Assembly (NCBI GenBank): GCA_964540855.1
Contig: CAZIOI010000002.1
Coordinates: 1 to 44,362 of the forward strand
Reading direction: 5' to 3'
Length of the DNA stretch: 44,362 bases
Source: an uncultured Candidatus Saccharibacteria bacterium
Lineage (GTDB): Bacteria > Patescibacteriota > UBA1384 > DTJR01
Below the pieces are notes generated by a model, which was not told the origin of the DNA, made no database searches, and worked only from the letters and a program-made list of their open reading frames with translations. Shown piece after piece: positions 1,463-43,975 of the stretch. Position numbers and translations under genes: made by a program. How positions within the stretch are numbered: position 1 is the stretch's first letter; every line of letters starts with the position of its first letter.

Positions 1463-1858
1463 ATGCGCCCAACGAAACTTAGCAGTATTGCCGTGGTCGC
1501 CCTCGTGGCGACCCTCATGGTCGTAGCCTGCGCCGTTCCGGCGCAGGCCCAGCTCGGCATCCAGGTCCAGATCGGGCCCGGATACAACTCGCAGGGCCCA
1601 CTGCAGCCTGTTGTGGTGCAGTGGTCAGATGGGACGACTTCTGTGGCATGGGTGCCCGCGCCCCAGCCGCAGATCGTTGTCCCCGTTCGGCCGCAATGGC
1701 AGCAGCCCTGGGGCTGCCAACCACCCCCGCCACCATGCTGGGGCGGACCACCTCCTCCCTTTTTCGACGCCCCCCGTCGTGGCGGCTCCCACGGCGGCGG
1801 ACACCATGACGGTGGAGGCCGGATCCGCTCCGGCGGACCCAGCCGCCACCCACGCTGA
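1463..1858 (+). CDS. GC-rich island 1: secreted Pro/Gln/Trp/Gly/His-rich protein, no recognised family
   Basis: GGAGG (1450-1454) lies 8 nt before the ATG at 1463; a GTG at 1454 is an alternative start. The N-terminus has a signal peptide (KLSSIAVVALVATLMVVACAVPAQA/Q). The C-terminus is PPPPPCWGGPPPP...GGSHGGGHHDGGG. Codon usage is unlike the neighbours. Confidence 0.6.
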   Translation: MRPTKLSSIAVVALVATLMVVACAVPAQAQLGIQVQIGPGYNSQGPLQPVVVQWSDGTTSVAWVPAPQPQIVVPVRPQWQQPWGCQPPPPPCWGGPPPPFFDAPRRGGSHGGGHHDGGGRIRSGGPSRHPR

Positions 1859-8868: not shown

Positions 8869-8985
8869 GTCGCTAAAGCGACATATTTCTAACTTGGTAT
8901 CTTTTGACTTACAATTTTTACTTAACAATTTTTAATTTTGCATTGTGATTATACGTTTTGCCTTTTTCGTTATACGTTTTGAATT
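8869..8985. repeat. Dispersed intergenic repeat copy (GTCGC-hairpin module, third copy of the 65-bp module, GTTATACG arms)
   Basis: gtcgctaaagcgac at 8869-8882. 8890-8954 is about 85% identical to 37485-37549. It is followed by gattatacgttttgcctttttcgttatacgtttt. Confidence 0.75.
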
Positions 8986-11084: not shown

Positions 11085-11239
11085 AGATTGAATTTCTCTT
11101 ATAAATTTGTTATCATTTCCCAAGTGAATTTCGTGAATTTACAGCACTTTTATATCTAAATGTGTTTTGGCTGTGCAAAAAAATTATCGCACAGCGATAC
11201 CAAAGTTATACGTTTTTCGTTTTGCGTTATACGTTATTT

Positions 11240-11314
11240 GGGCCAGTAGCTCAGTGGTAGAGCAGGAGCCTTTTAAGCTTCGTGTCGCGGGTTCGATCCC
11301 CGCCTGGCCCTCCA
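11240..11314 (+). tRNA. tRNA-Lys (anticodon UUU), CCA encoded
   Basis: Hand-folded cloverleaf: acceptor GGGCCAG/CTGGCCC, D stem GCTC/GAGC, anticodon stem GGAGC/GCTTC with loop CTTTTAA, T arm GCGGG-TTCGATC-CCCGC, then discriminator T and CCA. Confidence 0.93.
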
Positions 11315-16374: not shown

Positions 16375-16911
16375 TTGGCGCACGCCGAAAATGATACCAA
16401 GTTTGTCGTTCTGACAAAGAACGGCAGGCCAGCAGGGTGGGAACTACGCAAAGGCGATAGAGTCGCCGAAAGCGGGCGGCTATATCCAGTCAAGAGCGCA
16501 TGGGGTACACTTCTGCTCCACCTCCCCAGCATGAGACCCGGCTCATATAACAAGGATGAGCTGAGGACTGTGTTGGGCTGGGACGGCAACAGGCTAGAGG
16601 TTCTGACCAGAGCCGCCATCGAGCGGTTCGCAAGAGAGCACCCAGACGTAATGAAAATCCGTGGCAAAACCGTCGCGGTTCTCATCGAAATCGGCCTCGA
16701 AGAATTCGAGGCTGGCGAGCATATCTCGCCTTGTAAACAGACTCGGTGCACACCAGCGGCCCGAGCAAGCAAGACTCGAACTAGACAAGACCTCTCGGGG
16801 GTGTCGAACGAGAATTTGCTTGATCTTCTCGTAAGTTGCCTCCAGGATGCCGAGCAAGGCGGTTGCGCCGAAGCGGTTCGGCGCGAGATCCTCAGAAGAA
16901 TGCACCACTAA
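16375..16911 (+). CDS. GC-rich island 2, gene 1: 178-aa cytoplasmic protein, no recognised family
   Basis: A TTG start follows GGGGGGA by 5 nt. The residue composition is balanced with amphipathic segments (DELRTVLGWDGNRLEVLTRAAIERFAREHPDV). The overlapping antisense ORFs look like GC artefacts. Confidence 0.6.
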   Translation: MAHAENDTKFVVLTKNGRPAGWELRKGDRVAESGRLYPVKSAWGTLLLHLPSMRPGSYNKDELRTVLGWDGNRLEVLTRAAIERFAREHPDVMKIRGKTVAVLIEIGLEEFEAGEHISPCKQTRCTPAARASKTRTRQDLSGVSNENLLDLLVSCLQDAEQGGCAEAVRREILRRMHH

Positions 16912-20470: not shown

Positions 20471-20871
20471 TTCAAGCTTCACCTGAAATATGTCATTTCT
20501 GCCCCGACTCTCGACAGTCATTCTCGCCCCATCAATTCGCGGGGTAAACTACAGCGATTTATTCAGGCTTCGCCTGAAATGTGATTACGAGCTAAAGCTC
20601 GTAGATTTATGTTAAGGACAGGGGCTTCAAGTTGCCTGCCCGCTATCGCTAACGCTCAAGCGTTCGCAGGCGGGCGAAGCCCGCCCCCCTATCCTTAACA
20701 ATCCAACCCCGGCACGCTTCGTACCATGGTGTCGCTTTGCGACGATATTTGTCATTGCGAGCCCAAAGGGCGCGGCAATCTTACTAGCGTAAAACGTATA
20801 GCGTATAACTATGGTGTTGCTTTGCAACGATTATATGAAGTTTTGAATTATACACTGTGATTATACGTTAA
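20471..20871. repeat. 400-bp convergent intergenic region composed of stacked repeat modules
   Basis: Contains caagcttcacctgaaat / caggcttcgcctgaaat direct repeats and GC-rich hairpins. GTCGC hairpins lie at 20729-20741 and about 20805-20817. GTCATTGCGAG...GCGGCAATCT is at 20751-20781, and CGTATAAC arms end in tatacgttaatta at the eno stop. Confidence 0.7.
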
Positions 20872-22197
<1,326 letters not shown>

Positions 22198-22224
22198 TTA
22201 GGATAAAGACTAAATAATGCAAAA

Positions 22225-22318
22225 CTTATAACGAAAAACGTATAAACACAATGTAAAACTTAAAATAAAAAAACTATCGTCGCAAAGCGACACCATAGTT
22301 ATACGTTTTACGTTTTAC
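22225..22318. repeat. Dispersed palindromic repeat (CGTATAA arm, GTCGCAAAGCGAC hairpin, CACCATAGTTATACG arm)
   Basis: The same module order is seen at 26411-26517, 30470-30618, 33941-34032 and 37352-37471. Confidence 0.75.
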
Positions 22319-22381
22319 TTTAACTTATTTGCTTTTCAATCTAAACCGTAATACTATCAAACTAATAATTAAGGAGGGTCT

Positions 22382-25814: not shown

Positions 25815-25902
25815 TTTTTCTATTTTTTTCTGTTAACTACGATCGTAGGATAGACACATCCGAGGTTCTTTGAGTTTCTATCACATATGCAAGAGGCGCG
25901 AT

Positions 25903-26259
25903 ATGGGAGACCTAGCGTTGTCGGTTTCGCCAGATACCTTAGTCCTTGGCGATTCGATCCAAGTCAAGATCGAGCCTGACATGACTGCAGTTCTCGGCCT
26001 GCCAGGCGAATGGCTTACGGTCAAGATCGTAGCTATACCAGAATCGCGCTTGTACACGGTCTGGAACGACTCACTGCCGCGTGACGGCACTACTGGCTAT
26101 CAGCTGCAGGAGACGCACAATGGCTGGCGTTTCTGGCGGGAGACGCTGACCACCAACCACACATCAGCTGCCATCGTTCGTGCAGGCGACAGCAGTGTGC
26201 CGGCCAGACTTAAGCTGACACATCAGGCCGCCGATCCGACGCACAACGGCCATTGGTAG
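25903..26259 (+). CDS. GC-rich island 3: 118-aa beta-rich protein, no recognised family
   Basis: GAGG lies 6 nt before the ATG at 25903. The composition is GC-rich and foreign-looking. It has its own terminator. Confidence 0.55.
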   Translation: MGDLALSVSPDTLVLGDSIQVKIEPDMTAVLGLPGEWLTVKIVAIPESRLYTVWNDSLPRDGTTGYQLQETHNGWRFWRETLTTNHTSAAIVRAGDSSVPARLKLTHQAADPTHNGHW

Positions 26260-26334: not shown

Positions 26335-26410
26335 TCACAACAATCGTCACTTACTCCAGATATGCTTAATATATGATTCCTGTATGTGCAAAAGGCATAG
26401 TAGCGCAAAA

Positions 26411-26517
26411 TGCAAAATGTAAAACGTATAAACACAGCGTAAAATTCAAAAATTAATACATAACCGTCGCGAAGCGACACCATAGTTATACATTTTTCGT
26501 TTTACATTATACGTTAA
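26411..26517. repeat. Dispersed palindromic repeat copy that abuts the lepA stop
   Basis: aaacgtataaacac...gtcgcgaagcgacaccatagttatac...tatacgttaatta. The final tta is the lepA stop codon on the minus strand. Confidence 0.75.
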
Positions 26518-30423: not shown

Positions 30424-30469
30424 AAACTGATCTTAGCATTTTGTACCCTTAAACGGAAGGGAGATGTCA

Positions 30470-30768
30470 GCGTATAACTAAAAACGAAGAACGTATAATC
30501 ACAATAGATTAACGTATAACGTAAAAGGCAAAACGTATAATCACAACGCATAATTCAAAACCTACAAACTATCGTTGCAAAGCAACGCAATAGTTATACG
30601 CTATACGTTTTACGTTATGAATCAATTTGTCATTGCGCGGTTTTGGGGCGATCCAAAACCTAAACCTCTGTTTAACATTTTAACCCGGAGGACGCGGCAA
30701 TCTAAAAACAATTGTCGCAAAGTGACACCATAGTTATACCTTTTGCATTTTACGTTATACGTTATTAT
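30470..30768. repeat. Cluster of dispersed repeats upstream of murJ
   Basis: Several CGTATAAC/CGTATAAT arms, the hairpins gttgcaaagcaac and gtcgcaaagtgac with CCATAGTTATAC, and GTCATTGCG...GCGGCAATCT at 30629-30703. Confidence 0.75.
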
Positions 30769-33857: not shown

Positions 33858-33940
33858 AAAAATCCTCAAAAACTTTGCATCTTTGACTTTATACTTAAAT
33901 TCAAAATTGCACAAAGGAACGAGATAGTCAAAGCCAAACC

Positions 33941-34032
33941 AACGTATAACGAAAAAGGTAAAACGTAAAACCACAATAAACTAATGTATAACGTAAAACG
34001 AAAAACGTATAACTATGGTGTCGCTTCGCGAC
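33941..34032. repeat. Dispersed palindromic repeat copy
   Basis: aacgtataacgaaaaagg...acgtataactatggtgtcgcttcgcgac. Confidence 0.75.
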
Positions 34033-34121
34033 GATATTTGTGATTTAGTGTTTAGAACTTATTTGCTCAAACGTCATTTGTAAAAATGCGATTCTATCAA
34101 GTTTCTGCTAATCTTTTATTA

Positions 34122-35327
34122 ATGAGCAAAAACATCGTTCTACGCGACCAAATAGCAAGAGACTTATCGAAAGAGCTGGACATTTCTCTGGTTAAATCGA
34201 AAATGCTTATTTTAAAGCTGGAGTCTATTATTGCTTATGAGCTCAAATCCAAATCGCGCATTAAAATAGCTCATTTTGGAACATTTGCAATCAAGACTCG
34301 CGCTAGTCGAACGGTCAAAACCGTTCGAGAGCAAAAAACAAAAATTATACTCGAGCAGGAAGCGATTAGGTTCATTGCCGCCGAGCAGTTTAAAAGCCTG
34401 CTGATGGGTAAACCCGATTCGACAAAATTCAAGGGGATCGAGCCCGCTCAACCGGACGAAACAAAATCGGAGAATTCAAGCGAAAAAATAAGTATTAGCG
34501 TCACCAAACCCTCCGAACCGGACAATGCGCAAGTACAAGATGAAGAAATTCCGGTCAAATTTGTGGCGCACGAAAAATCAGCTGAAACGATCAAAATCCC
34601 CCTCGAGGAGACGCCCGAACCCAAAAAAAATGAGAGCACCAAAATAGTTCCCATAATCACAGAAAAAAAATCCCCCGTGTCTATTGCACCAAAACCAAAA
34701 ACACCGAAGCCGGCCAAAACCGCGCCGGCTCCGATCCGGCAGCCTGAACCAATCAGCAAGCCGAGAATCGTACAATTAACCGAGCCCGTGACCCATCCCG
34801 CCGTCTCGCGAGCCAAGACTAGCCCAATACCTCAGATTAAAAAACCATCCAAACCAGTTGAAAAAATTAAGTTTTCACCTCTTTCGATATATTCGCGCAT
34901 TGAGCGCGCCAAAGTTGAGACCGAGATTGCAAACCGCCTTGTAAAATTGGCTAAAACCCTTGAATCGCAAAAAAACGCAAAAAGTGACGACCGAGAAATA
35001 AAAATTGCCGAGAAGATATTTGCAAATTTTATATCTCAAGCATCAAAACTCCACATAAAATCGCTTGACTTCTCCATTTCGGCAAAAAAGCCCTCCAAAA
35101 GTGATCAAACCGCGATTTGCGCCGGTAGGCCGAGAATATGTCTGGGCAAAATACCAACGCTCTTGCTGCATCAATTTACTGAAGAAATTGCCGATATCGA
35201 GAGTTTTGAAACACCCCAGCTGAGATTTGTAACTATTAAAAAAGCGGATAATATAAAGAAGGCGATCCTAGAGGTCCACAGTTTTCCGACTCACGAGGGC
35301 GCAAGTATCCATGTAAAAGTCTTATGA
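34122..35327 (+). CDS. HU/IHF-like DNA-binding domain fused to a long Pro/Lys-rich linker and an unknown C-terminal domain
   Basis: The N-terminal ~95 aa match the HU fold pattern (HFGTFAIKTRASRTVKTV...IRFIAAEQFKSLL). A low-complexity PKP-rich segment and a ~110-aa globular tail follow. Confidence 0.75.
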   Translation: MSKNIVLRDQIARDLSKELDISLVKSKMLILKLESIIAYELKSKSRIKIAHFGTFAIKTRASRTVKTVREQKTKIILEQEAIRFIAAEQFKSLLMGKPDSTKFKGIEPAQPDETKSENSSEKISISVTKPSEPDNAQVQDEEIPVKFVAHEKSAETIKIPLEETPEPKKNESTKIVPIITEKKSPVSIAPKPKTPKPAKTAPAPIRQPEPISKPRIVQLTEPVTHPAVSRAKTSPIPQIKKPSKPVEKIKFSPLSIYSRIERAKVETEIANRLVKLAKTLESQKNAKSDDREIKIAEKIFANFISQASKLHIKSLDFSISAKKPSKSDQTAICAGRPRICLGKIPTLLLHQFTEEIADIESFETPQLRFVTIKKADNIKKAILEVHSFPTHEGASIHVKVL

Positions 35328-35692
35328 ATAGAAAAATAGTACAATTCACATTCGTTATAGCAGTGGCGGTTTTTGTTGGCTGTGGTCTATTGGGTTTTGG
35401 AATATATAAAAATCAGCCGACCGCCGACAGCTTTTCTTCGACCATCCCCGCCGGTCCGAGTTGGGCGGCAGACAATACTCCGGAAGTGCCTGACAAGCCC
35501 GCTATTGCCGGGGATGCAACCGACGACGGAATTACTAATTCGATGGATATAAACGCGCTCCTGTATCGCTGGGGTGAATCAGACGCCGATTATAAGACAG
35601 CCGCCGGCAAAACTACTGTTGGAAGCTATGATATTGTCGAAGTTGTCAATAACTGGCACTGCACCGAAGACCGGAACGGGTGCGGAAGTTAA
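35324..35692 (+). CDS. Small membrane-anchored protein with a dockerin/EF-hand-like Ca-binding repeat
   Basis: An N-terminal TM helix, then GDATDDGITNSMDINALLYRWG, which resembles a dockerin repeat. Confidence 0.5.
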   Translation: MNRKIVQFTFVIAVAVFVGCGLLGFGIYKNQPTADSFSSTIPAGPSWAADNTPEVPDKPAIAGDATDDGITNSMDINALLYRWGESDADYKTAAGKTTVGSYDIVEVVNNWHCTEDRNGCGS

Positions 35693-35714
35693 CGCAAAAT
35701 TAAAAACGAAAAAC

Positions 35715-35779
35715 GTATAACCACAATTCAAAATTATTAAGTACTAAGTAAGAATTGTAAGTCAAAAGACACTAAGTTT
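35715..35779. repeat. Left copy of the 65-bp inverted repeat that brackets the ncRNA island
   Basis: The reverse complement of 37485-37549 matches with 2 mismatches in 65 (hand alignment). Confidence 0.85.
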
Positions 35780-35780
35780 A

Positions 35781-35892
35781 GTCATTCCTGACTTGCTGTG
35801 CCCTGCGTAGCCCTGCCTACCGGCAGGCAGGCTTGGCGAAGTGGGGTCATTGCGAACCCGCGCAGCCACTGGCGAAGTGAGTGTGGCAATCT
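35781..35892. repeat. 66-nt GTCATTCCTGAC... module plus a GTCATTGCGA...GGCAATCT module
   Basis: 35781-35846 equals 41218-41283 with 2 mismatches in the same orientation. 35846-35892 belongs to the GTCATTGCGAG family. Confidence 0.85.
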
Positions 35893-36189
35893 CGCATCAT
35901 ATTCTTTTATTGACATTCCTGTGAAAACAGGAATCTTATCTTATTCGGGCTTCGCTTTAGTTAATAAAGAAACAACCAACAAGAAAGCAAGCTCCAAACA
36001 AATAACAAATCTCAATAATCAAACAAAAAATAATAAGCGTTTGTTTGTATATTTGAATATTGAAGTTTGTTTGGTCATTGTTTCTTGGTTATTGTTAGTT
36101 TTAAGCATTTTCGACACGCTTCATACCATGTGTCGCTAGCGCGACTTTTTTAAGTTTAAAAACCATAAATCCTAAAATTTCTATGTTTA

Positions 36190-36238
36190 CTCTATAAAAC
36201 AGCGAAGGCCACGGAGCTCCGAGTGGAGACGTGGCCTT
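36190..36238 (-). terminator. Terminator of the island 4 transcript
   Basis: On the minus strand, aaggccac-N18-gtggcctt is followed by cgctgtttta. Confidence 0.6.
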
Positions 36239-37297
36239 TGGTTGGGTCCCGCTAGGCGGGACCCCGGAGTAATATGGGTGGATGAATGTCGGAGGTGGAC
36301 AAAGGCGCGAACCCTGTCCACCCCCTTGGGCCTGTGTGCCCAAAGATGATCGCGTCCCGCCCGAAGGTGACTCGGGCGGGGTTGATGAAAAACTGCCTTC
36401 CAGCGGCTACGGGGGCTTCCCGTCATCATCCCGCTGTCGGCAGGGTGCGCCCCCGACCCGTGGTCGGGGGTACTTCCCTTGGCTCCGGTTCGATTAGGCG
36501 ACCTGCAAGGTCGCCTCCCCGACGTCAGATTTCATTCGGTCGTCCTTCCGGCCCGCCTCCTGGCGGGCGCGAGGGGATCTGGTAACCCGTCTCGTCCGCG
36601 CTCCCCTCAGAGAACGGAGTCTCAGGCGGGATTCCGTCAGATGGGCGTTGGGCCGGTAGTGCGATGCAAAGTGCAATCCAGCCCTCATCATCGTCGCAGG
36701 TGGCCCAACGCCCGTCCGTACGACTCCACGACGACTGATCGAACGCCCGGCCGAAGCACGAGACTCCAGCAAGGTCGCCAGAGTGTAGCTACATGACCGA
36801 GCGTCGCCACTTGAACGCACTGTTTGCACTCCTGATCGCCCCTACAGGGCGATCGGCCACTAACGTCCCACGAGATCCGACTCCTTCTCTTACACATCTG
36901 GCTGGAGTCGGTCTCGAGAAAGATGATACGTCCCCCGTTCGGAGTCCCCACATACCGCAGACTAGTGAAGTCACACCGAATCTGCCTTGTGAAGCCCTTA
37001 CATCAAACAGCAGAAAACCTTGGCCGCCATCAATAGGCGGCAATTTGTCTCCGCAAAGCAACATCAGAACAGCCGGAACAGGCAAGACCCGAACTCGTCC
37101 TCCTTGGGAGAAGGAATACCGTTCGAGTAACCGCCGCCATCTCCTCGCGGAGACAGCCGTTTACCGGCCGGCCTAAGGCCGCCCGGGTCTGACGAGACGA
37201 CTAGATTGTCACATCTAGCACGGCGGTGTGTCTGCCAACATCAATCAACCCTCCTTTCCCAGATCATCCACCATTTCAAGGTTCGTACAAATACGAC
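36190..37297 (-). ncRNA. Candidate large (about 1.1 kb) GC-rich structured ncRNA, class unknown (island 4)
   Basis: No credible ORF exists in any frame, and many perfect 6-12-bp helices are present. Minus-strand promoter-like and terminator-like signals frame it. The strand and ends are inferred, not proven. Confidence 0.5.
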
Positions 37298-37304
37298 TGG
37301 GTTC

Positions 37305-37332
37305 ATAATATTACTTTTTTTAAAAAATGCAA
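37305..37332 (-). promoter_or_regulatory. Putative promoter of the island 4 transcript (TTGCAT-17-TATTAT)
   Basis: The reverse complement reads TTGCAT (37327-37332), a 17-nt spacer, then TATTAT (37305-37310). Confidence 0.45.
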
Positions 37333-37351
37333 TAGATGCGTTACAGGGTAA

Positions 37352-37471
37352 AATCGTTGTTAATGTATAACTAAAAACGTATAGCGTATAACTATGGTGT
37401 CGCTTCGCGACAATCGTTGTTAATGTATAACGTAAAACGTATAGCGTATAACTATGGTGTCGCTTCGCGAC
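37352..37471. repeat. Two tandem 60-bp copies of the dispersed repeat unit
   Basis: 37352-37411 and 37412-37471 are identical except for the dinucleotide ct versus cg/ta versus gt in ...gtataac(ta/gt)aaaacg... Confidence 0.9.
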
Positions 37472-37484
37472 AATATTTATTTTA

Positions 37485-37549
37485 AACTTAGTGTCTTTTG
37501 ACTTACAATTCTTACTTAGTAATTATTAATTTTGAATTGTGGTTATACA
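37485..37549. repeat. Right copy of the 65-bp inverted repeat, abutting the dnaE stop
   Basis: This is the inverted partner of 35715-35779. The dnaE stop codon begins at 37550, the next base after the repeat. Confidence 0.85.
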
Positions 37550-40500
37550 TTATTCGTTAGCGAAGGTTTTCTTCAGTTCCTGTTCGAACTCATCTGTCAA
37601 GTCCACTTTTGACCTCGTCTTGGCAAACTTGAAATCGCCATTTTGTTTATATGCGAGAACCAACAGACTTTCGCCCGAAAAGCGTTCAACAATTTCTTTT
37701 AATTTTAAAATTTTGTCCTTTTTAGTCGTTTTGGGCAAAATAACATAAACCGTCCCATCATCTTTGAGCGCAAACTGCCCTTTTTCAAAGGCATGTTTCA
37801 GTTTGTCGGTTATATTTTTTGTCTCCGATTCTTCGGTAAGGTCAATTTCAACAATTTTGTCTTCTACTGGGTCAACGGTTACAACGTGACTAGAGGCAAA
37901 TTTTGTATTGACAGAGGCAAATTCCGGCGCAGCAATTTTCGCCGGATCAAACTTTTCCGTTCGCTCGGCCAATACCTTGACCTCCCCGTCTTTTGTCGAA
38001 ATCTTGCCGGTGACAAGCACAATATTATCCGCCACCCAAAGGTCTGCTTCAGCCTCTAGGGTTTTCGGAAAAATAAGCACCTCCGATTTACCGGAGAGGT
38101 CTTCTATAGTCGCAAATGCCATGGCGGCGCCGGATTTTGTATTGATCTTTTTTATCGCCTGAATAATTCCACCGACTTTGACTTTTTTGCCGTCCATCGA
38201 CAAATTAAGGTCCGTCAGAGAATGGCTGACCGCCATCTTGAGTTTCGCGCCGTTTTCTTTGAGCGGATGCTCGCTGATATAAATTCCCAGTAGTTCCTTT
38301 TCCCAAACAAGTTTATCAGCCTGCTCGGCCGGTTTGACCTCTGGCAGATCGAGCTTGCCGATTTCGATATCGCCCGAGAGAACCTCACCGAACAATCCGA
38401 TTTGCGAGGATTTTATCTGCTTGGTCGTATCCTGAATCCTCTTGGTGATCGTTTCCATACCTTCTAATACTTGGTTTCGCTCAATCAGCGAATCCAGCGC
38501 GCCGGATTTTGCCAAGGCCTCCAAAATCTTTTTGTTTAACACCGATCGAGTGGTCTTGGCGGCATCAGCCTGATCTACCGTCTCTTCGACATCCGTTTTG
38601 CTAAGCCGGTCAATAAAATCTTCAAAACTCTTGTACGGACCGTTTTTTTTGCGCTCGCGAACAATCACTCGCGCCGGATTTGTGCCTATATTTTTGATCG
38701 CCGCAAGACCAAAGCGAATATCGCCCGTCTCCTTGACCACGCCAAAATCGACAAAGCTTTCGTTGACATCGGGCGGCAAAACATTGATACCCATCTTATT
38801 GCATTCGTCAATCTCGATCGAAATCCTATCAATATCGTCCAAATCGTTAGTCAAAAGCGCCGCCATAAAGCACTGCGGATGATTCGCCTTGAGATACGCC
38901 GTCTGGTAAGCGATCATGGCATAACAAACCGCGTGCGACTTGTTAAACCCATAGGCCGCAAAATCTTGAAGCATCGAGAAAACTTTTTTGCCGTCCGATT
39001 CGCTGACCCCGTTTTTTTGCGCGCCCTTGATAAATTTTTCTTTCATCTCGGCCATCAGCTCGGCAATTTTTTTACCCATCGCTTTTCTAAGCTTGTCAGC
39101 CTCGCCGCCGGTAAAACCGGCCATATCGCGGGAGATCTGCATAACTTGCTCCTGATAAACCGGAATACCGTAGGTAACTTCGAGAGCTTTTTTGGTCATT
39201 TCGTGCGGATATTCTATCGCCTCGCGACCGTTTTTACGAGCAATAAACGTGTCGATAAATTGCATCGGACCCGGCCTGTAAAGCGCCACCATGACAGCCA
39301 CATCATCGAGCGTGGTCGGCTTGAGCTCTTTGATATAGCGCTTCATACCGGCGGACTCCAGCTGAAACACTCCCGTTGTCCTTCCGTCGCCCAATAACTT
39401 GAATGTTTTTTGGTCGTCCAACGGAAGGTTGAAAATATCTATCTTTTTGCCGTCCACCGCCTCGATAATTTCCAGCGCGCGCTCAATGGTCGTAAGGTTT
39501 GCTAGCCCCAAGAAGTCCATCTTTAACAGTCCCAGCTCCGCCACCGGATACATCGAATACTGTGTCACCTGTTTGACACCCTCTTTTTGCGCCTGCTGCA
39601 GTGGCACATAACAGGTCAACTCGTCCTTGGTAATAACAAAAGCGCTAGCGTGCTGGGAGGCGTGGCGCACCGTCCCTTCGAGCTGTATCGCCATATCCAT
39701 TAGTCGCTTGGCACGAGGATCTTTTTGGTAAACTTCTTTGAGTTCAGCCGAGTCCTTGACCGATTTTTCCAGCGGAATGTGTTTGCCTTGCACCGGCGGC
39801 GGCACGATCTTGGAAATCGCGTCCACCTCGGCATAAGGATAACCGAGCACACGGCCGACATCGCGCACAGCAGCTCGCGCCGCCATTGTTCCAAAAGTAA
39901 TAATGCCGGCAACCCGTTGCTCGCCATATTTTTGCACAATATAATCCAAAACCTCGCTGCGGCGGTGATCGGCAAAATCAAGGTCGATATCAGGCATTTC
40001 ATGGCGATCGGGATTCAAAAATCTCTCAAAAAGCAGACTATACTTTAGAGGGTCGGCATCGGCGATATGCGTTAAATACGCCACCAACGATCCCGCCGCG
40101 CTACCGCGACCCGGACCGACCATGATCCCTTGCTGCTTCGCCCAACTGACATAGTCGGAGACAATCAGAAAATAACTCGAGAAACCCATACTGCAAATTA
40201 CCGACAATTCATATTCAAGACGTTCGTTTATTTTTTTGAGCTCTTCGGCAGACGCGTTCGGGTAACGATCTTTTATCCCGTTTCGGCACAAATCTTTGAG
40301 ATACTCGGCATCTGTTTTACCCTTGGGTAGTGGAAAAGTCGGCAGCAAGTTTGTTTCAAATGGTATTTCGAGGTCGCATTTATCGGCAATCTCTTTTGTG
40401 TTAGTCAGCGCCTCTGGCACTTCTTTAAACACCTTCGCCAAATCCTGCGGATCGCGCAATGAAAAATCGCCGTTGTAAGTCATTCTGTTTTTGTCTTCGA

Positions 40501-41197: not shown

Positions 41198-41217
41198 TTT
41201 TTTAAATTATTTTCTTT

Positions 41218-41478
41218 GTCATTCCTGACTTGCTGTGTCCCGCGTAGCCCTGCCTACCGGCAGGCAGGCTTGGCGAAGTGGGGTTCAGGAATCTTGGTAT
41301 TGTCATTGCGAGCGAGCGTAGCCCCGTGAAGCCTTAAGTGTAATGGGGCGAAGTGAGCGCGGCAATCTCTTCGCATCGTTCTTTTTACACTTTTCATTAA
41401 CATTTTGATTTTTAAGATTTAATTTTTAATTTTACGTTGTGGTTATACATTTTTCGTTTTACGTTATACGTTATTCAC
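41218..41478. repeat. Repeat cluster upstream of dnaE
   Basis: The 66-nt GTCATTCCTGAC... module is at 41218-41283 and is closed by gttcaggaat. GTCATTGCGAG...GGCAATCT is at 41302-41368. A partial 65-bp module and GTTATACG arms lie at about 41420-41478. Confidence 0.8.
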
Positions 41479-41581: not shown

Positions 41582-42187
41582 CTACTCGAACATCCTCTTA
41601 GCGACCTTGTCGGCCGCCGATTCACTGCGTGGCTTGTCGAAGTGTTGGCGAACAGCATCAAACAAGCTGTTTGCCCAATTCTCCGCAGCCAGCCCCGCGG
41701 ACTTGGCCGCCCACAACAGCTCTGTGAACAACGAAAGAGCCCTCGCCATGTCGCTCTGCGTAATCTCGCAGGGCAACTTGACGAGCTCGCCCACGACAAC
41801 GAAGTCGCGTGTGAGCTCGCCCGAGATGTCGTCAGCCGTGCCGGAGGCGACCTTCAACATCTGCCGCCAGTCGCCATTCTTGAAACGGCTTGGCGACCCC
41901 ACCGGCAACGGAGTCCCGTCGCCAATCGTGACGCGTACGAAAACGAACCTGCCCCCTTCCTCATCTGCCCCGAGCACGAGGTCGAGGTTGAGGGCGGCCG
42001 CAACCCACTGCTCCAGCCAGCTGCCCTCGGCAGCTGCAACGTCACGCTCACCCTGCAGCCACCGGACAGCATCCATCACCGCGGCCTTGATCGTGGCGAT
42101 AACCCCAAACCGCCCCTCCTCCGCCATCTTCCGCAGACCGGCCGAAAACCTGATCTCCCTGTTCTCCACGTAACTGTCTCCCATCAT
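41582..42187 (-). CDS. GC-rich island 5, gene 2: 201-aa cytoplasmic protein, no recognised family
   Basis: The composition is balanced and the SD GGGGAG lies within the repeated leader. The plus-strand ORFs over the same DNA are Arg/Pro/Ser-rich artefacts. Confidence 0.6.
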   Translation of the reverse strand: MMGDSYVENREIRFSAGLRKMAEEGRFGVIATIKAAVMDAVRWLQGERDVAAAEGSWLEQWVAAALNLDLVLGADEEGGRFVFVRVTIGDGTPLPVGSPSRFKNGDWRQMLKVASGTADDISGELTRDFVVVGELVKLPCEITQSDMARALSLFTELLWAAKSAGLAAENWANSLFDAVRQHFDKPRSESAADKVAKRMFE

Positions 42188-42189
42188 CT

Positions 42190-42226
42190 GTCAAGATACT
42201 CCCCTTCGCGCGCTGGCTTGGGGGTT
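42190..42226 (-). promoter_or_regulatory. Repeated 5' leader element, copy A (upstream of the 201-aa gene)
   Basis: gtcaagatactccccttcgcgc at 42190-42211 is identical to 42831-42852. The adjacent ggct(t/c)gggggtt is also shared. The minus-strand sense is CCCCC...GCGCGAAGGGGAGTATCTTGAC. Confidence 0.6.
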
Positions 42227-42816
42227 TACTTGCGCAATTGCCCTCGACCACGACCAACCCTCTCAAACGTCTGGTCCACTCCGGCGCGCCCCTCAACGAT
42301 CCAACGGGGAGTCTCCTCACCGTCGCTAACACGCCCCTCCGCCATCTCCGCTGCCTCTCGAGCAAGCTTGAGGTAGTGCCTGAACACATCCTCAAGCTCC
42401 TCCCGAAGGTAAGCCACGCCATCGATGATCTCGCAGTCCTCAGCGAGAAAATGATAAAGCTCCCAGCTGGCCGCCTCTCGCAGAACATTAGATACTTCCT
42501 GGTAACTGCCGAGGGTATGCAGCTCAACGGGGATCTTGAGCCAACGCCGGCGATTGAACCGGACCTTGGCGGTAACATCATTCGCCCGGTCACCAACACA
42601 GCGCTGCCTCCGTCTGCTTGGACAGATGGCAAAGCAAACCTCAAAGTGTCTGCTAACAAACCTGTCCAACCAGCCGCCAACTGCAACAGCGGCAGCTAAC
42701 TGGTTTTCATCAAGGAGCCACTTCAACCGCTTAAGAATGGCCCCCTTGACTAAAGACATGGCCTCGGGCTTTTTGGCCTTCAGCTGCTGCATCAATCGCT
42801 CCGAGAGTCTCGTCAC
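42226..42816 (-). CDS. GC-rich island 5, gene 1: 196-aa cytoplasmic protein, no recognised family
   Basis: A GTG start lies 7 nt after AAGGGGG. The sequence has amphipathic helical segments (SWELYHFLAEDCEIIDGVAYLREELEDVFRHYLKLAREAAE). Confidence 0.6.
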   Translation of the reverse strand: MTRLSERLMQQLKAKKPEAMSLVKGAILKRLKWLLDENQLAAAVAVGGWLDRFVSRHFEVCFAICPSRRRQRCVGDRANDVTAKVRFNRRRWLKIPVELHTLGSYQEVSNVLREAASWELYHFLAEDCEIIDGVAYLREELEDVFRHYLKLAREAAEMAEGRVSDGEETPRWIVEGRAGVDQTFERVGRGRGQLRK

Positions 42817-42830
42817 GGCTACCCCCTTAC

Positions 42831-42867
42831 GTCAAGATACTCCCCTTCGCGCAAAGGCTCGGGGGTT
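42831..42867 (-). promoter_or_regulatory. Repeated 5' leader element, copy B (upstream of the 196-aa gene)
   Basis: Carries the same 22-nt core and the 12-nt flanking match as copy A. Confidence 0.6.
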
Positions 42868-43402: not shown

Positions 43403-43975
43403 ATGGATTCAACATTTACCCACAAACATTATCAGCTGAAAAAGAATATCCCCGACATCAACCCGGGTGATCGTGTTCGCGTCCATCAGAAAATCCGCGA
43501 GGGCAACAAAGAAAGAATTCAGGTTTTTGAAGGTCTTGTTATCAAAGCTCAGCACGGCAACGGCATCAACGGGACGTTTACCGTGCGCAGAATCGCCTCC
43601 GGTGTCGGAGTCGAAAAGCTGTTTCCCCTTCACTCACCGGTTATTACCAAGATCGAAAAAGTTCGCTCTGCCAAGGTTAGGCGCGCAAAATTGTACTACG
43701 TCAGAGGTTTGATCGGAAAAGCCGCACGCAGATTAAAAAAAGAAAAAGAAGATCTAGCTATCTGGGAAGACGTAATCGTTGATGAGGACGAAAAAACCGG
43801 CGAAACAGACGAGACCGAGGAGACAGCTACAGACGCGACCGAAGAAAAAGAAGCCGACAAAGCCGAAGAAGAAACTACCGAAGACGCTAAAGACGATGAC
43901 AGTACCGAAACAAAGGACAAAAAACCGGCAGAATCTCAAAAAACCGATAAAGCAGAGAAAAAATCCGACAAATAA
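43403..43975 (+). CDS. rplS: 50S ribosomal protein L19 with an acidic/Lys-rich C-terminal extension
   Basis: The core reads [27 protein letters not shown]...[11 protein letters not shown]. It is 190 aa rather than about 115. Confidence 0.93.

Follow-up and report, generated by a model that had tools for sequence, protein, structure and literature searches.

What occupies the gene-free interval downstream of dnaE in the 44,362-nucleotide (nt) contig CAZIOI010000002.1 of an uncultured bacterium is the question addressed here; the whole of this stretch is called the window below. The interval holds a GC-rich island at positions 36190-37332, termed unit D, which lies directly downstream of dnaE and on the dnaE strand, i.e., the minus strand. 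A preliminary description made from the letters of the window had proposed a large structured non-coding RNA (ncRNA) of no recognised class. We find that unit D is non-coding, structured in excess of its composition and bounded like a gene, and that its position and architecture are conserved in relatives without constraint on its sequence. With moderate confidence, we regard it as a stand-alone, lineage-specific, syntenic and fast-evolving ncRNA gene that acts through an array of generic stem-loops. Its RNA would serve as a protein- or RNase-binding platform, or as a stabilising element.

Unit D has no coding character

The G+C content per 100-nt window is 47-70% across 36200-37250, against 23-35% in the flanking spacers and a mean of 44% for the window, so that the sharp jump in composition noted earlier is real. 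The open reading frames (ORFs) of unit D overlap one another on both strands. Six of them have flat G+C contents at the three codon positions (GC1/GC2/GC3 of 0.49-0.68), unlike every real gene of the window, which is marked by a dip in GC2. The period-3 amplitude is 0.04-0.14 (0.10 for the whole unit) versus 0.2-0.36 in coding controls, and no relic codon periodicity was found in any 300-nt window of the unit. Furthermore, nine ORF translations from both strands, searched as a concatenate, have no relative among 5.8 billion proteins. By codon-position composition and absent homologues, unit D is therefore neither a protein-coding gene nor a pseudogene, in agreement with the earlier view of an island devoid of genuine ORFs.

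Promoter, leader and terminator

The minus strand of the island carries the following elements:

36190-37332, minus strand: the whole stand-alone transcription unit D, from the predicted promoter to the end of the terminator tail (GC island, no codon periodicity, folding z-score of -9.6, same architecture at the same locus in relatives)
37305-37332, minus strand: sigma-70-like promoter read directly from the sequence, with -35 hexamer TTGCAT (37332-37327), 16-nt spacer and -10 hexamer TATTAT (37310-37305), with about 10 nt between its end and the GC-rich body
37258-37298, minus strand: 5' leader with a small terminal stem-loop, UCGUA-N4-UACGA (37296-37283), predicted in the maximum-expected-accuracy structure with a pair probability of 0.89
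37250-37257, minus strand: perfect Shine-Dalgarno sequence AAAGGAGG, 8 nt before an ATG (direct sequence reading)
37215-37241, minus strand: 8-codon mini-ORF (MLADTPPC and stop) with its ATG at 37241 (direct sequence reading)
36190-36238, minus strand: intrinsic terminator, a two-tier hairpin AAGGCCACG-U-CUCC-ACUC-GGAG-CUC-CGUGGCCUU (36238-36205) followed by CGCUGUUUUAUAGAG (sequence and predicted fold)

The minus-strand frame of promoter-like site and terminator reported before is thus present, and together the two predicted elements place the putative transcript on this strand. The promoter hexamers are as reported; the spacer is 16 nt rather than 17, and the -35 hexamer has only three of six consensus bases. 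The Shine-Dalgarno sequence, its 8-nt spacer, the ATG at 37241 and the 8-codon ORF ending at 37215 all agree with the preliminary description.

Hairpin density and folding energy

Between the leader and the terminator lies the hairpin-bearing body of the unit:

36239-37214, minus strand: body of about 22 consecutive GC-rich stem-loops with 3-7-nt loops and a few nested long-range helices (predicted fold and hairpin counts)
36244-36264, 36294-36322, 36356-36380 and 36450-36470, minus strand: perfect hairpins of the body, present in the sequence
36496-36516, 36551-36568, 36834-36854 and 37023-37041, minus strand: further perfect hairpins of the body, present in the sequence
36643-36654 with 36702-36713, minus strand: 12-bp long-range pair of the body, present in the sequence

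Every hairpin listed in the preliminary description was found in its place. We compared the number of perfect stems with loops of 3-13 nt with that in 300 dinucleotide shuffles. Seven stems of at least 7 bp were observed against a shuffled mean of 0.77, six of at least 8 bp against 0.17, and four of at least 9 bp against 0.04; none of the 300 shuffles matched the observed count at any stem length. The minimum free energy (MFE) structure of the unit contains 24 hairpins. For 36200-37300, the folding energy of the minus strand was -527 kcal/mol compared with -453 kcal/mol in 40 shuffles (z -9.6), and that of the plus strand was -479 compared with -415 kcal/mol (z -7.5), a gain of 64-74 kcal/mol over the whole 1.1 kb. 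A control region in dnaE had a z-score of about -0.9. The comparison with dinucleotide-shuffled controls that had been suggested earlier thus shows an excess of folding energy on both strands.

Counterparts downstream of dnaE in related genomes

Units of the same design were found downstream of dnaE, on the dnaE strand, in at least eight related genomes whose DnaE is 70-81% identical to that of the window (related loci carry L numbers):

L078, 9925-10630, dnaE strand: unit; DnaE 81% identical to that of the window
L113, 8720-9310, dnaE strand: unit; DnaE 78% identical
L056, 11010-11800, dnaE strand: unit; DnaE 74% identical
L116, 8670-9300, dnaE strand: unit; DnaE 72% identical
L001, 13860-14150 and 14300-15270, dnaE strand: two units; DnaE 71% identical
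L046, 4125-4510, dnaE strand: unit; DnaE 70% identical
L118, 8645-9060, dnaE strand: unit; DnaE 70% identical
L121, 8225-8640, dnaE strand: unit; DnaE 70% identical

Judged by its DnaE, the window belongs to a Berkelbacteria-like lineage of the tiny-celled Candidate Phyla Radiation (CPR) bacteria, and the surrounding genes are ordinary chromosomal ones (ComEC, GrpE, DnaK, enolase and MurJ, with dnaX and dnaB by synteny). The gene order of the clade is L27-L19, an orphan-gene zone, dnaE, the gap, a small secreted 'dockerin-like' protein, an HU-domain fusion, dnaX and dnaB. The 'dockerin-like' and HU-domain genes are on the strand opposite to dnaE, and the HU-domain protein gene (34086-35327 in the window) is two genes away from the unit in every genome examined. 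The 'dockerin-like' neighbour named in the preliminary description has no Pfam match. Unit D and its counterparts all sit between dnaE and this convergent operon, on the dnaE strand.

The ends of the counterparts resemble those of unit D. Every unit has a promoter of the form TTGxxx-16/17-TAxxxT that ends a few bases short of the GC-rich body, where AT-rich gives way to GC-rich sequence, and a long terminator hairpin at its 3' end, followed by 4-7 nt and then (G)TTTTATA (GTTTTATA). A terminator of the design A(A/G)GGCC..GGCC(C/U)U, N4-7 and GUUUUAUA is common to unit D, L113, L116, L046 and L078, and the stems of these terminators show compensated changes (AC..GU versus GG..CC), as in the pair AAGGCCAC..GTGGCCTT against AAGGCCGG..CCGGCCTT. 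The folding z-scores of the counterparts range from -6 to -11, except for L001b (-3.3), and L045 is weak with a z-score of about 0; the period-3 amplitudes are 0.04-0.15. Gene callers annotated nothing in the corresponding gaps of L113, L116 and L121, and in one more relative this place is a gap of 2.4 kb devoid of genes. Across the clade sequence covered, about 200 kb from loci centred on dnaE, every GC island free of period-3 signal lies at the site downstream of dnaE, and all others look coding. The region is 100% identical in L118, L119 and L120, which come from three independent samples, and this rules out an assembly artefact and ongoing hypermutation. Nor is unit D a chimera, since a unit of this kind recurs at the corresponding position in independent assemblies of relatives.

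The leader of unit D, with its Shine-Dalgarno sequence at +44, also has parallels. A Shine-Dalgarno sequence and start codon occur at +37 to +63 in L056 (5 codons), L116 (21 codons) and L001b (10 codons), and in GC island A, a protein-coding island of the window described below, the Shine-Dalgarno sequence at +55 opens an ORF of 131 codons. By our own count, the density of such 5' signals is roughly ten times that elsewhere in the units. The peptides of unit D and its counterparts (5, 10 and 21 codons in the latter) are unrelated, and a sense-strand search for small ORFs in all units gave only unconserved mini-ORFs. Ribosome-loading 5' stabilisers are known in Gram-positive bacteria. The 5' signals of unit D could form such a stabiliser, belong to a micropeptide gene or be left over from the start of a former gene.

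In L118 (7975-8500) and L121 (7910-8215), a second unit separates dnaE from the hairpin array. Comparison of the two loci shows about 95% conservation across 39 nt of its promoter and 5' hairpin, which are followed by unrelated small ORFs, one of 97 aa rich in Ala, Pro and Thr in L118 and one for a 51-aa membrane peptide in L121.

Turnover of sequence and retention of architecture

No 9-mer occurs in three or more of the units, unit D included, and blastn-short gives no match between unit D and its counterparts. The Smith-Waterman local scores equal those of shuffles, and neutral sites are saturated at such distances. Even L118 and L121, whose DnaE proteins are about 92% identical, conserve only the promoter hexamers and the last ~90 nt, whereas the ~290-nt interior is random. 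Fourfold-degenerate sites of dnaE are 45% identical between L118 and L121 and 38% identical between the window and L078 or L113, i.e., saturated. Unalignable interiors therefore need no replacement of cassettes. At the same time, unconstrained sequence should be both unalignable and relaxed to the 20-35% G+C of the spacers, whereas 57-65% G+C and a high density of hairpins are seen in all of these lineages, despite divergence to saturation. G+C content and hairpins are thus maintained, either by selection or by a persistent biased process, and the sequence is not. A conserved complex fold of the OLE/GOLLD type did not emerge, since the interiors of the counterparts cannot be aligned and the loops are minimal and without a recurring motif.

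Two observations bear on whether pairing acts in RNA or in DNA. In-helix wobbles on the dnaE strand of all units comprise 22 G.U versus 7 A.C, where about 1.2:1 is expected, and this class-wide excess favours pairing at the RNA level. In the terminators of L118 and L121, one-sided switches from A-U to G.U keep pairing on the sense RNA only. The excess stability of the minus strand, however, is largely compositional (G+U richness), and the z-scores favour no strand consistently, so the asymmetry in MFE was rejected as a guide to the strand.

Searches for known RNA families and close relatives

Rfam 15 was searched with families that include OLE, GOLLD, ROOL, HEARO, raiA, RNase P, transfer-messenger RNA (tmRNA), ribosomal RNA (rRNA), 6S, group I and II introns and riboswitches. 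At the gathering threshold, the sole match in the window was a transfer RNA (tRNA) at 11240-11311. With permissive filters, the best matches in 35900-37600 reached about 20 bits against thresholds of 38-211, with E values of at least 1.7, and neither Intron_gpII nor group-II-D1D4 matched in this region at E<=10. Eight related loci gave tRNAs and nothing else, and ARAGORN found a tRNA-Lys and no tmRNA. Unit D thus belongs to no Rfam family, in line with the earlier failure to find hallmark motifs of rRNA, RNase P, tmRNA or a group II intron, and among the window ORFs examined there was no reverse transcriptase, transposase or Cas neighbour. A long, imperfect AT-rich hairpin at 35960-36100, between the repeats and the terminator of unit D, accounts for spurious matches to plant and animal miRNA precursors in the permissive search.

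A blastn search of phage and plasmid collections with unit D gave no match, and an exact-pattern scan of viral contigs with two of its hairpins gave two chance matches in GC-rich phage contigs. We found no ncRNA of this kind described for CPR bacteria in the literature searched. An exact look-up returned no DnaE on record that is identical to that of the window. Closer strains exist, with DnaE 98%, 89% and 88% identical, as does an identical neighbour protein; the contigs of these strains end at the flanking repeats, 30-330 nt from the flanking genes and before unit D. The sequencing runs with these strains are ERR7570002 (98%, with fourfold sites 80% identical), SRR30949874 (89%), SRR27197505 and SRR8925735 (88%), and SRR22315502 and SRR8925806 for the identical neighbour protein. 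The contig of L109 ends inside REP-like elements downstream of dnaE.

A GC-rich orphan compartment around dnaE

Unit D is not the only GC island of the window. Four others are present, all of them orphan protein genes:

1463-1858, plus strand: GC island A, encoding a 131-aa orphan product with a Sec-type signal peptide
16375-16911, plus strand: GC island B, with coding composition
25870-26259, plus strand: GC island C, with coding composition
41582-42187 and 42226-42816, minus strand: GC islands E1 and E2, weak paralogues with coding composition

These islands have 55-70% G+C, and each has its own promoter and terminator. The ORF of the gene with the signal peptide contains perfect palindromes of 9-10 bp. 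The orphan proteins match no Pfam, PADLOC or PHROG family and have no homologue among the 5.8 billion proteins, and these searches thus pointed to no foreign donor of the islands. Unit D is the non-coding member of this GC-rich, orphan, strain-variable compartment that flanks dnaE in the clade.

Interpretation of unit D

In the reading that we favour, transcription would start about 7 nt after TATTAT and end at the two-tier terminator hairpin (36238-36205). Local folding of the RNA of about 1.1 kb would yield about two dozen short GC stem-loops of high stability, each closed by a minimal loop. The small stem-loop, the perfect Shine-Dalgarno sequence and the 8-codon ORF would lie at the 5' end of the RNA, and the latter two may load a ribosome that protects this end. 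Unit D would be the local copy of a syntenic gene of the Berkelbacteria-like CPR clade, in which selection would keep the promoter, the 3' terminator domain, the high G+C content and the dense hairpins rather than the primary sequence. The RNA would be abundant and nuclease-resistant. It would work by the number and stability of its generic stem-loops, to which an RNase or an RNA-binding protein that recognises structure could bind in a multivalent manner, the RNA being its platform or decoy. Considering the synteny and the interaction reported between HU and naRNA4 (see below), the conserved HU-domain neighbour is a candidate partner.

Several observations weigh against this reading. The -35 hexamer is weak, and a simple consensus promoter scan missed the site. 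The unit is absent in the close relatives L115 and L117, as well as in the more distant L002 and L072, and is therefore dispensable. The strongest stems of unit D are perfect Watson-Crick palindromes, which a process acting on DNA could produce too. For the same reason the wobble count of unit D alone (3 versus 3) is uninformative, and the z-scores are inconsistent between strands and units and give no reliable separation of the strands. The coding GC island A is likewise very hairpin-rich (z about -12), so hairpin density alone is no proof of RNA function, and hairpin richness may be a property of the GC-rich compartment instead. No alignable homologue of the window copy was found in our searches that would show covariation in its fold, and the HU link is one of synteny only. 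Finally, no loop motif recurs among the 19 confident loops of unit D or the 98 of nine units, 60% of which are only 3-4 nt long.

This lack of a recurring motif, together with the 3-4-nt loops, argues against a sequence-specific sponge and towards a role of generic stable hairpins. Such hairpins point to nuclease resistance, multivalent binding of a structure-specific protein, or stabilisation or insulation in cis. Within the reading as an ncRNA gene, we suggest with modest confidence that unit D is a trans-acting stable RNA offering many stem-loops to a structure-specific binder. More tentatively, and with considerable doubt, the class may represent an undescribed kind of bacterial long non-coding RNA (lncRNA), namely a syntenic, strongly expressed hairpin array in which promoter, 3' domain, G+C content and stem-loop density are selected while the sequence drifts. 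Valency and stability would let such an RNA, resistant to nucleases, serve as platform or decoy, for example for the HU-domain protein, and it could feed new orphan secreted-protein genes. The origin of GC-rich orphan genes from such a unit is conceivable because, in transcripts with a Shine-Dalgarno sequence and a start codon, the loss of a single stop codon would open an ORF.

Alternative explanations

We rank the alternatives, from the most to the least probable, as an orphan cassette, a REP-like 3' untranslated region (UTR), a set of DNA palindromes, and a diverged known RNA or chimera.

The first alternative, which we consider unlikely, holds that unit D is a non-functional member of the clade's pool of GC-rich orphan-gene cassettes, i.e., a decayed small-protein gene, a proto-gene or a micropeptide gene whose structure is incidental. 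GC islands A, B, C and E1/E2 are orphan protein genes with the same layout of promoter, leader, Shine-Dalgarno sequence and terminator, and the gene-like start of unit D (Shine-Dalgarno sequence at +44, then ATG) resembles those of island A (+55), L056, L116 and L001b. The mini-ORF peptides, however, are unrelated and only 5-21 codons long, and neither the 300-nt windows nor the flat GC1/2/3 values of the ORFs retain any trace of codon periodicity. 'Unit 1' of L118 and L121 (the second unit above) has a common promoter, yet unrelated small ORFs, and presence and absence vary among relatives, as would suit a cassette pool. Against decay, at least eight genomes diverged to saturation are all non-coding at the site and none has an intact gene, and a sequence in decay would be expected to approach the G+C content of nearby spacers (20-35%).

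A cis-acting function is distinctly unlikely in our view. Here, unit D would be an oversized REP/BIME-like cluster that, as the 3' UTR of dnaE read-through, blocks 3'-5' exonucleases, and also a terminator or insulator between dnaE and the HU/'dockerin' operon. This would suit its place between convergent genes on the dnaE strand, and read-through is plausible given that the REP-like hairpins between dnaE and unit D have no minus-strand U-tract. In E. coli, REP325 is reported to act as terminator and stabiliser, and the presence of REPs between two convergent genes is reported to be associated with higher expression of the pair (bioRxiv 10.64898/2026.03.23.713779). However, a promoter-like site precedes unit D, and in L118 and L121 no part of the region is better conserved than this site. 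The hairpins of the unit are unique rather than copies of a dispersed repeat. A length of 0.3-1.1 kb is also far beyond what blocking an exonuclease needs, and relatives without the unit keep the same gene arrangement.

It is quite improbable that unit D is a palindrome cluster that arose or acts in the DNA itself, whether formed by template switching, extruded as cruciforms or serving as a protein-binding array. The perfect Watson-Crick palindromes among the strongest stems, the strongly negative z-scores on both strands and the missing wobble asymmetry in unit D alone are in keeping with such a cluster. Promoter and terminator, on the other hand, are conserved at the borders of all counterparts, and no recognition sequence is repeated; the class-wide 22 G.U versus 7 A.C in helices and the terminator changes of L118 and L121, which pair on the sense RNA only, also speak for RNA.

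A highly diverged known RNA (group II intron remnant, RNase P, tmRNA, rRNA fragment or OLE/GOLLD/ROOL) or foreign or chimeric DNA deserves hardly any credence: the island is GC-rich relative to its host and about 1 kb long, but it has no gathering-level Rfam match (best E 1.7, ~19 bits; none for the counterparts either), ARAGORN gives tRNA-Lys only, phages and plasmids have no blastn match, the host-style AT-rich promoter and terminator tails are flush with the island, and independent assemblies show the same layout.

Comparison with known RNA systems

In its proposed way of working, unit D comes closest to a REP/BIME cluster or a multi-hairpin sponge RNA. REP/BIME elements such as REP325/naRNA4 are likewise intergenic and, as proposed for unit D, transcribed. 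They too consist of stable, short-looped GC stem-loops in array, lie at the ends of genes or between convergent ones, and vary from strain to strain. An HU-family protein has been reported to bind the naRNA4 transcript of E. coli REP325 (PMC4550694), and an HU-domain gene is the conserved neighbour here; the HU/naRNA4 interaction has been questioned as a nucleoid-organising mechanism (bioRxiv 10.64898/2026.03.23.713779). REP units, however, belong to dispersed repeat families, lack promoters of their own and measure from tens to a few hundred nt, whereas the hairpins of unit D are all different and unrepeated in the window, and the unit has its own promoter and terminator and extends to 1.1 kb. 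The window's own REP-like families lie around unit D and are unrelated to it. The near-identical dispersed copies that mark REP/BIME repeats were not found, as blastn gave no second copy of unit D in the window, the 44 kb of this genome that the search covered, or in 120 related loci.

The classes OLE, GOLLD, ROOL, HEARO and raiA are likewise 0.6-1 kb long, non-coding, GC-rich relative to the genome, structured and stand-alone. They have conserved nucleotides and covarying multi-stem junctions that are detectable across phyla, whereas unit D has no covariance-model match, is mostly a simple string of hairpins, and its class shares no interior even at about 92% DnaE identity. The CsrB/RsmZ sponges are also stand-alone multi-hairpin RNAs with a Rho-independent terminator, a fast turnover of sequence and a lasting architecture. 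They repeat GGA in their loops, whereas no loop recurs in the class of unit D (19 confident loops in unit D, 98 in nine units), so that the motif array of a sponge of this type was not found. Phage 'morons' or cassettes share with unit D a self-contained transcription unit, deviant composition and variability among close relatives, but unit D has a housekeeping context (dnaE, dnaX, dnaB, HU, DnaK, enolase and MurJ), no ORF and a clade-wide position.

What is new in unit D is that place, ends, composition and hairpin density are conserved without conservation of sequence. To our knowledge, nearly all large bacterial ncRNAs were found via conservation of sequence and structure. Screens of this kind miss a gene whose place and shape persist while its sequence does not. 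If confirmed, freely drifting sequence under a selected architecture would resemble the situation of eukaryotic lncRNAs, and would mean that lncRNAs with structure by composition exist in bacteria with very small genomes, where each kilobase is costly. It would also offer a way into the study of RNA turnover, nucleoid proteins or interaction with hosts in CPR organisms that are uncultured. Lying within the GC-rich orphan compartment flanking dnaE, unit D is a candidate system for the birth of genes from structured non-coding transcripts.

Repeat families and other features of the window

An intergenic repeat family of about 60 nt, AACGTATAAC...ACTATGGTGTCGCTTCGCGAC, ends in a small GTCGC-N3-GCGAC hairpin, and most spacers of the window have a copy. 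Copies lie at 37352-37471 (a tandem pair), 11171-11236, 20769-20828, 22215-22329, 26401-26516, 30468-30764, 33940-34045, 35690-35733 and 41408-41473; the hairpin core has 19 matches in the window versus 2.75 expected. A 76-nt inverted repeat (35705-35780 and 37483-37558, 95% complementary) brackets the whole intergenic region between dnaE and the 'dockerin' gene. Its two arms begin at the stop codons of the two convergent genes, one arm at each, and other copies lie at gene ends at 8884-8964 and 41378-41458.

A second palindromic family, GTCATTGCGAG...GCGGCAATCT / GAGATTGC...CTCGCAATGAC, is found at 35778-35905 and 41215-41370. It also occurs in L078 (9700-9870) and downstream of dnaE in L107 and L109, and is thus common to different genomes of the clade; the short-read contigs of close strains break at this family.

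A 37-nt direct repeat, 89% identical, lies at 42190-42226 and 42831-42867, directly upstream of E1 and E2, respectively, and is probably a shared 5' UTR or regulatory element. Just beyond the E genes, at 43403-43975 on the plus strand, a 190-aa ORF matches the phage protein family phrog_7602 (function unknown) with an E value of 1.6e-36. Three relatives, among them L056 (6001-10704), have a DnaE of 1572-1580 aa with an insertion of the intein type (PF14890). In L121, the variable orphan zone upstream of dnaE encodes a 445-aa reverse transcriptase (RVT_1) at 1050-2387 on the minus strand.

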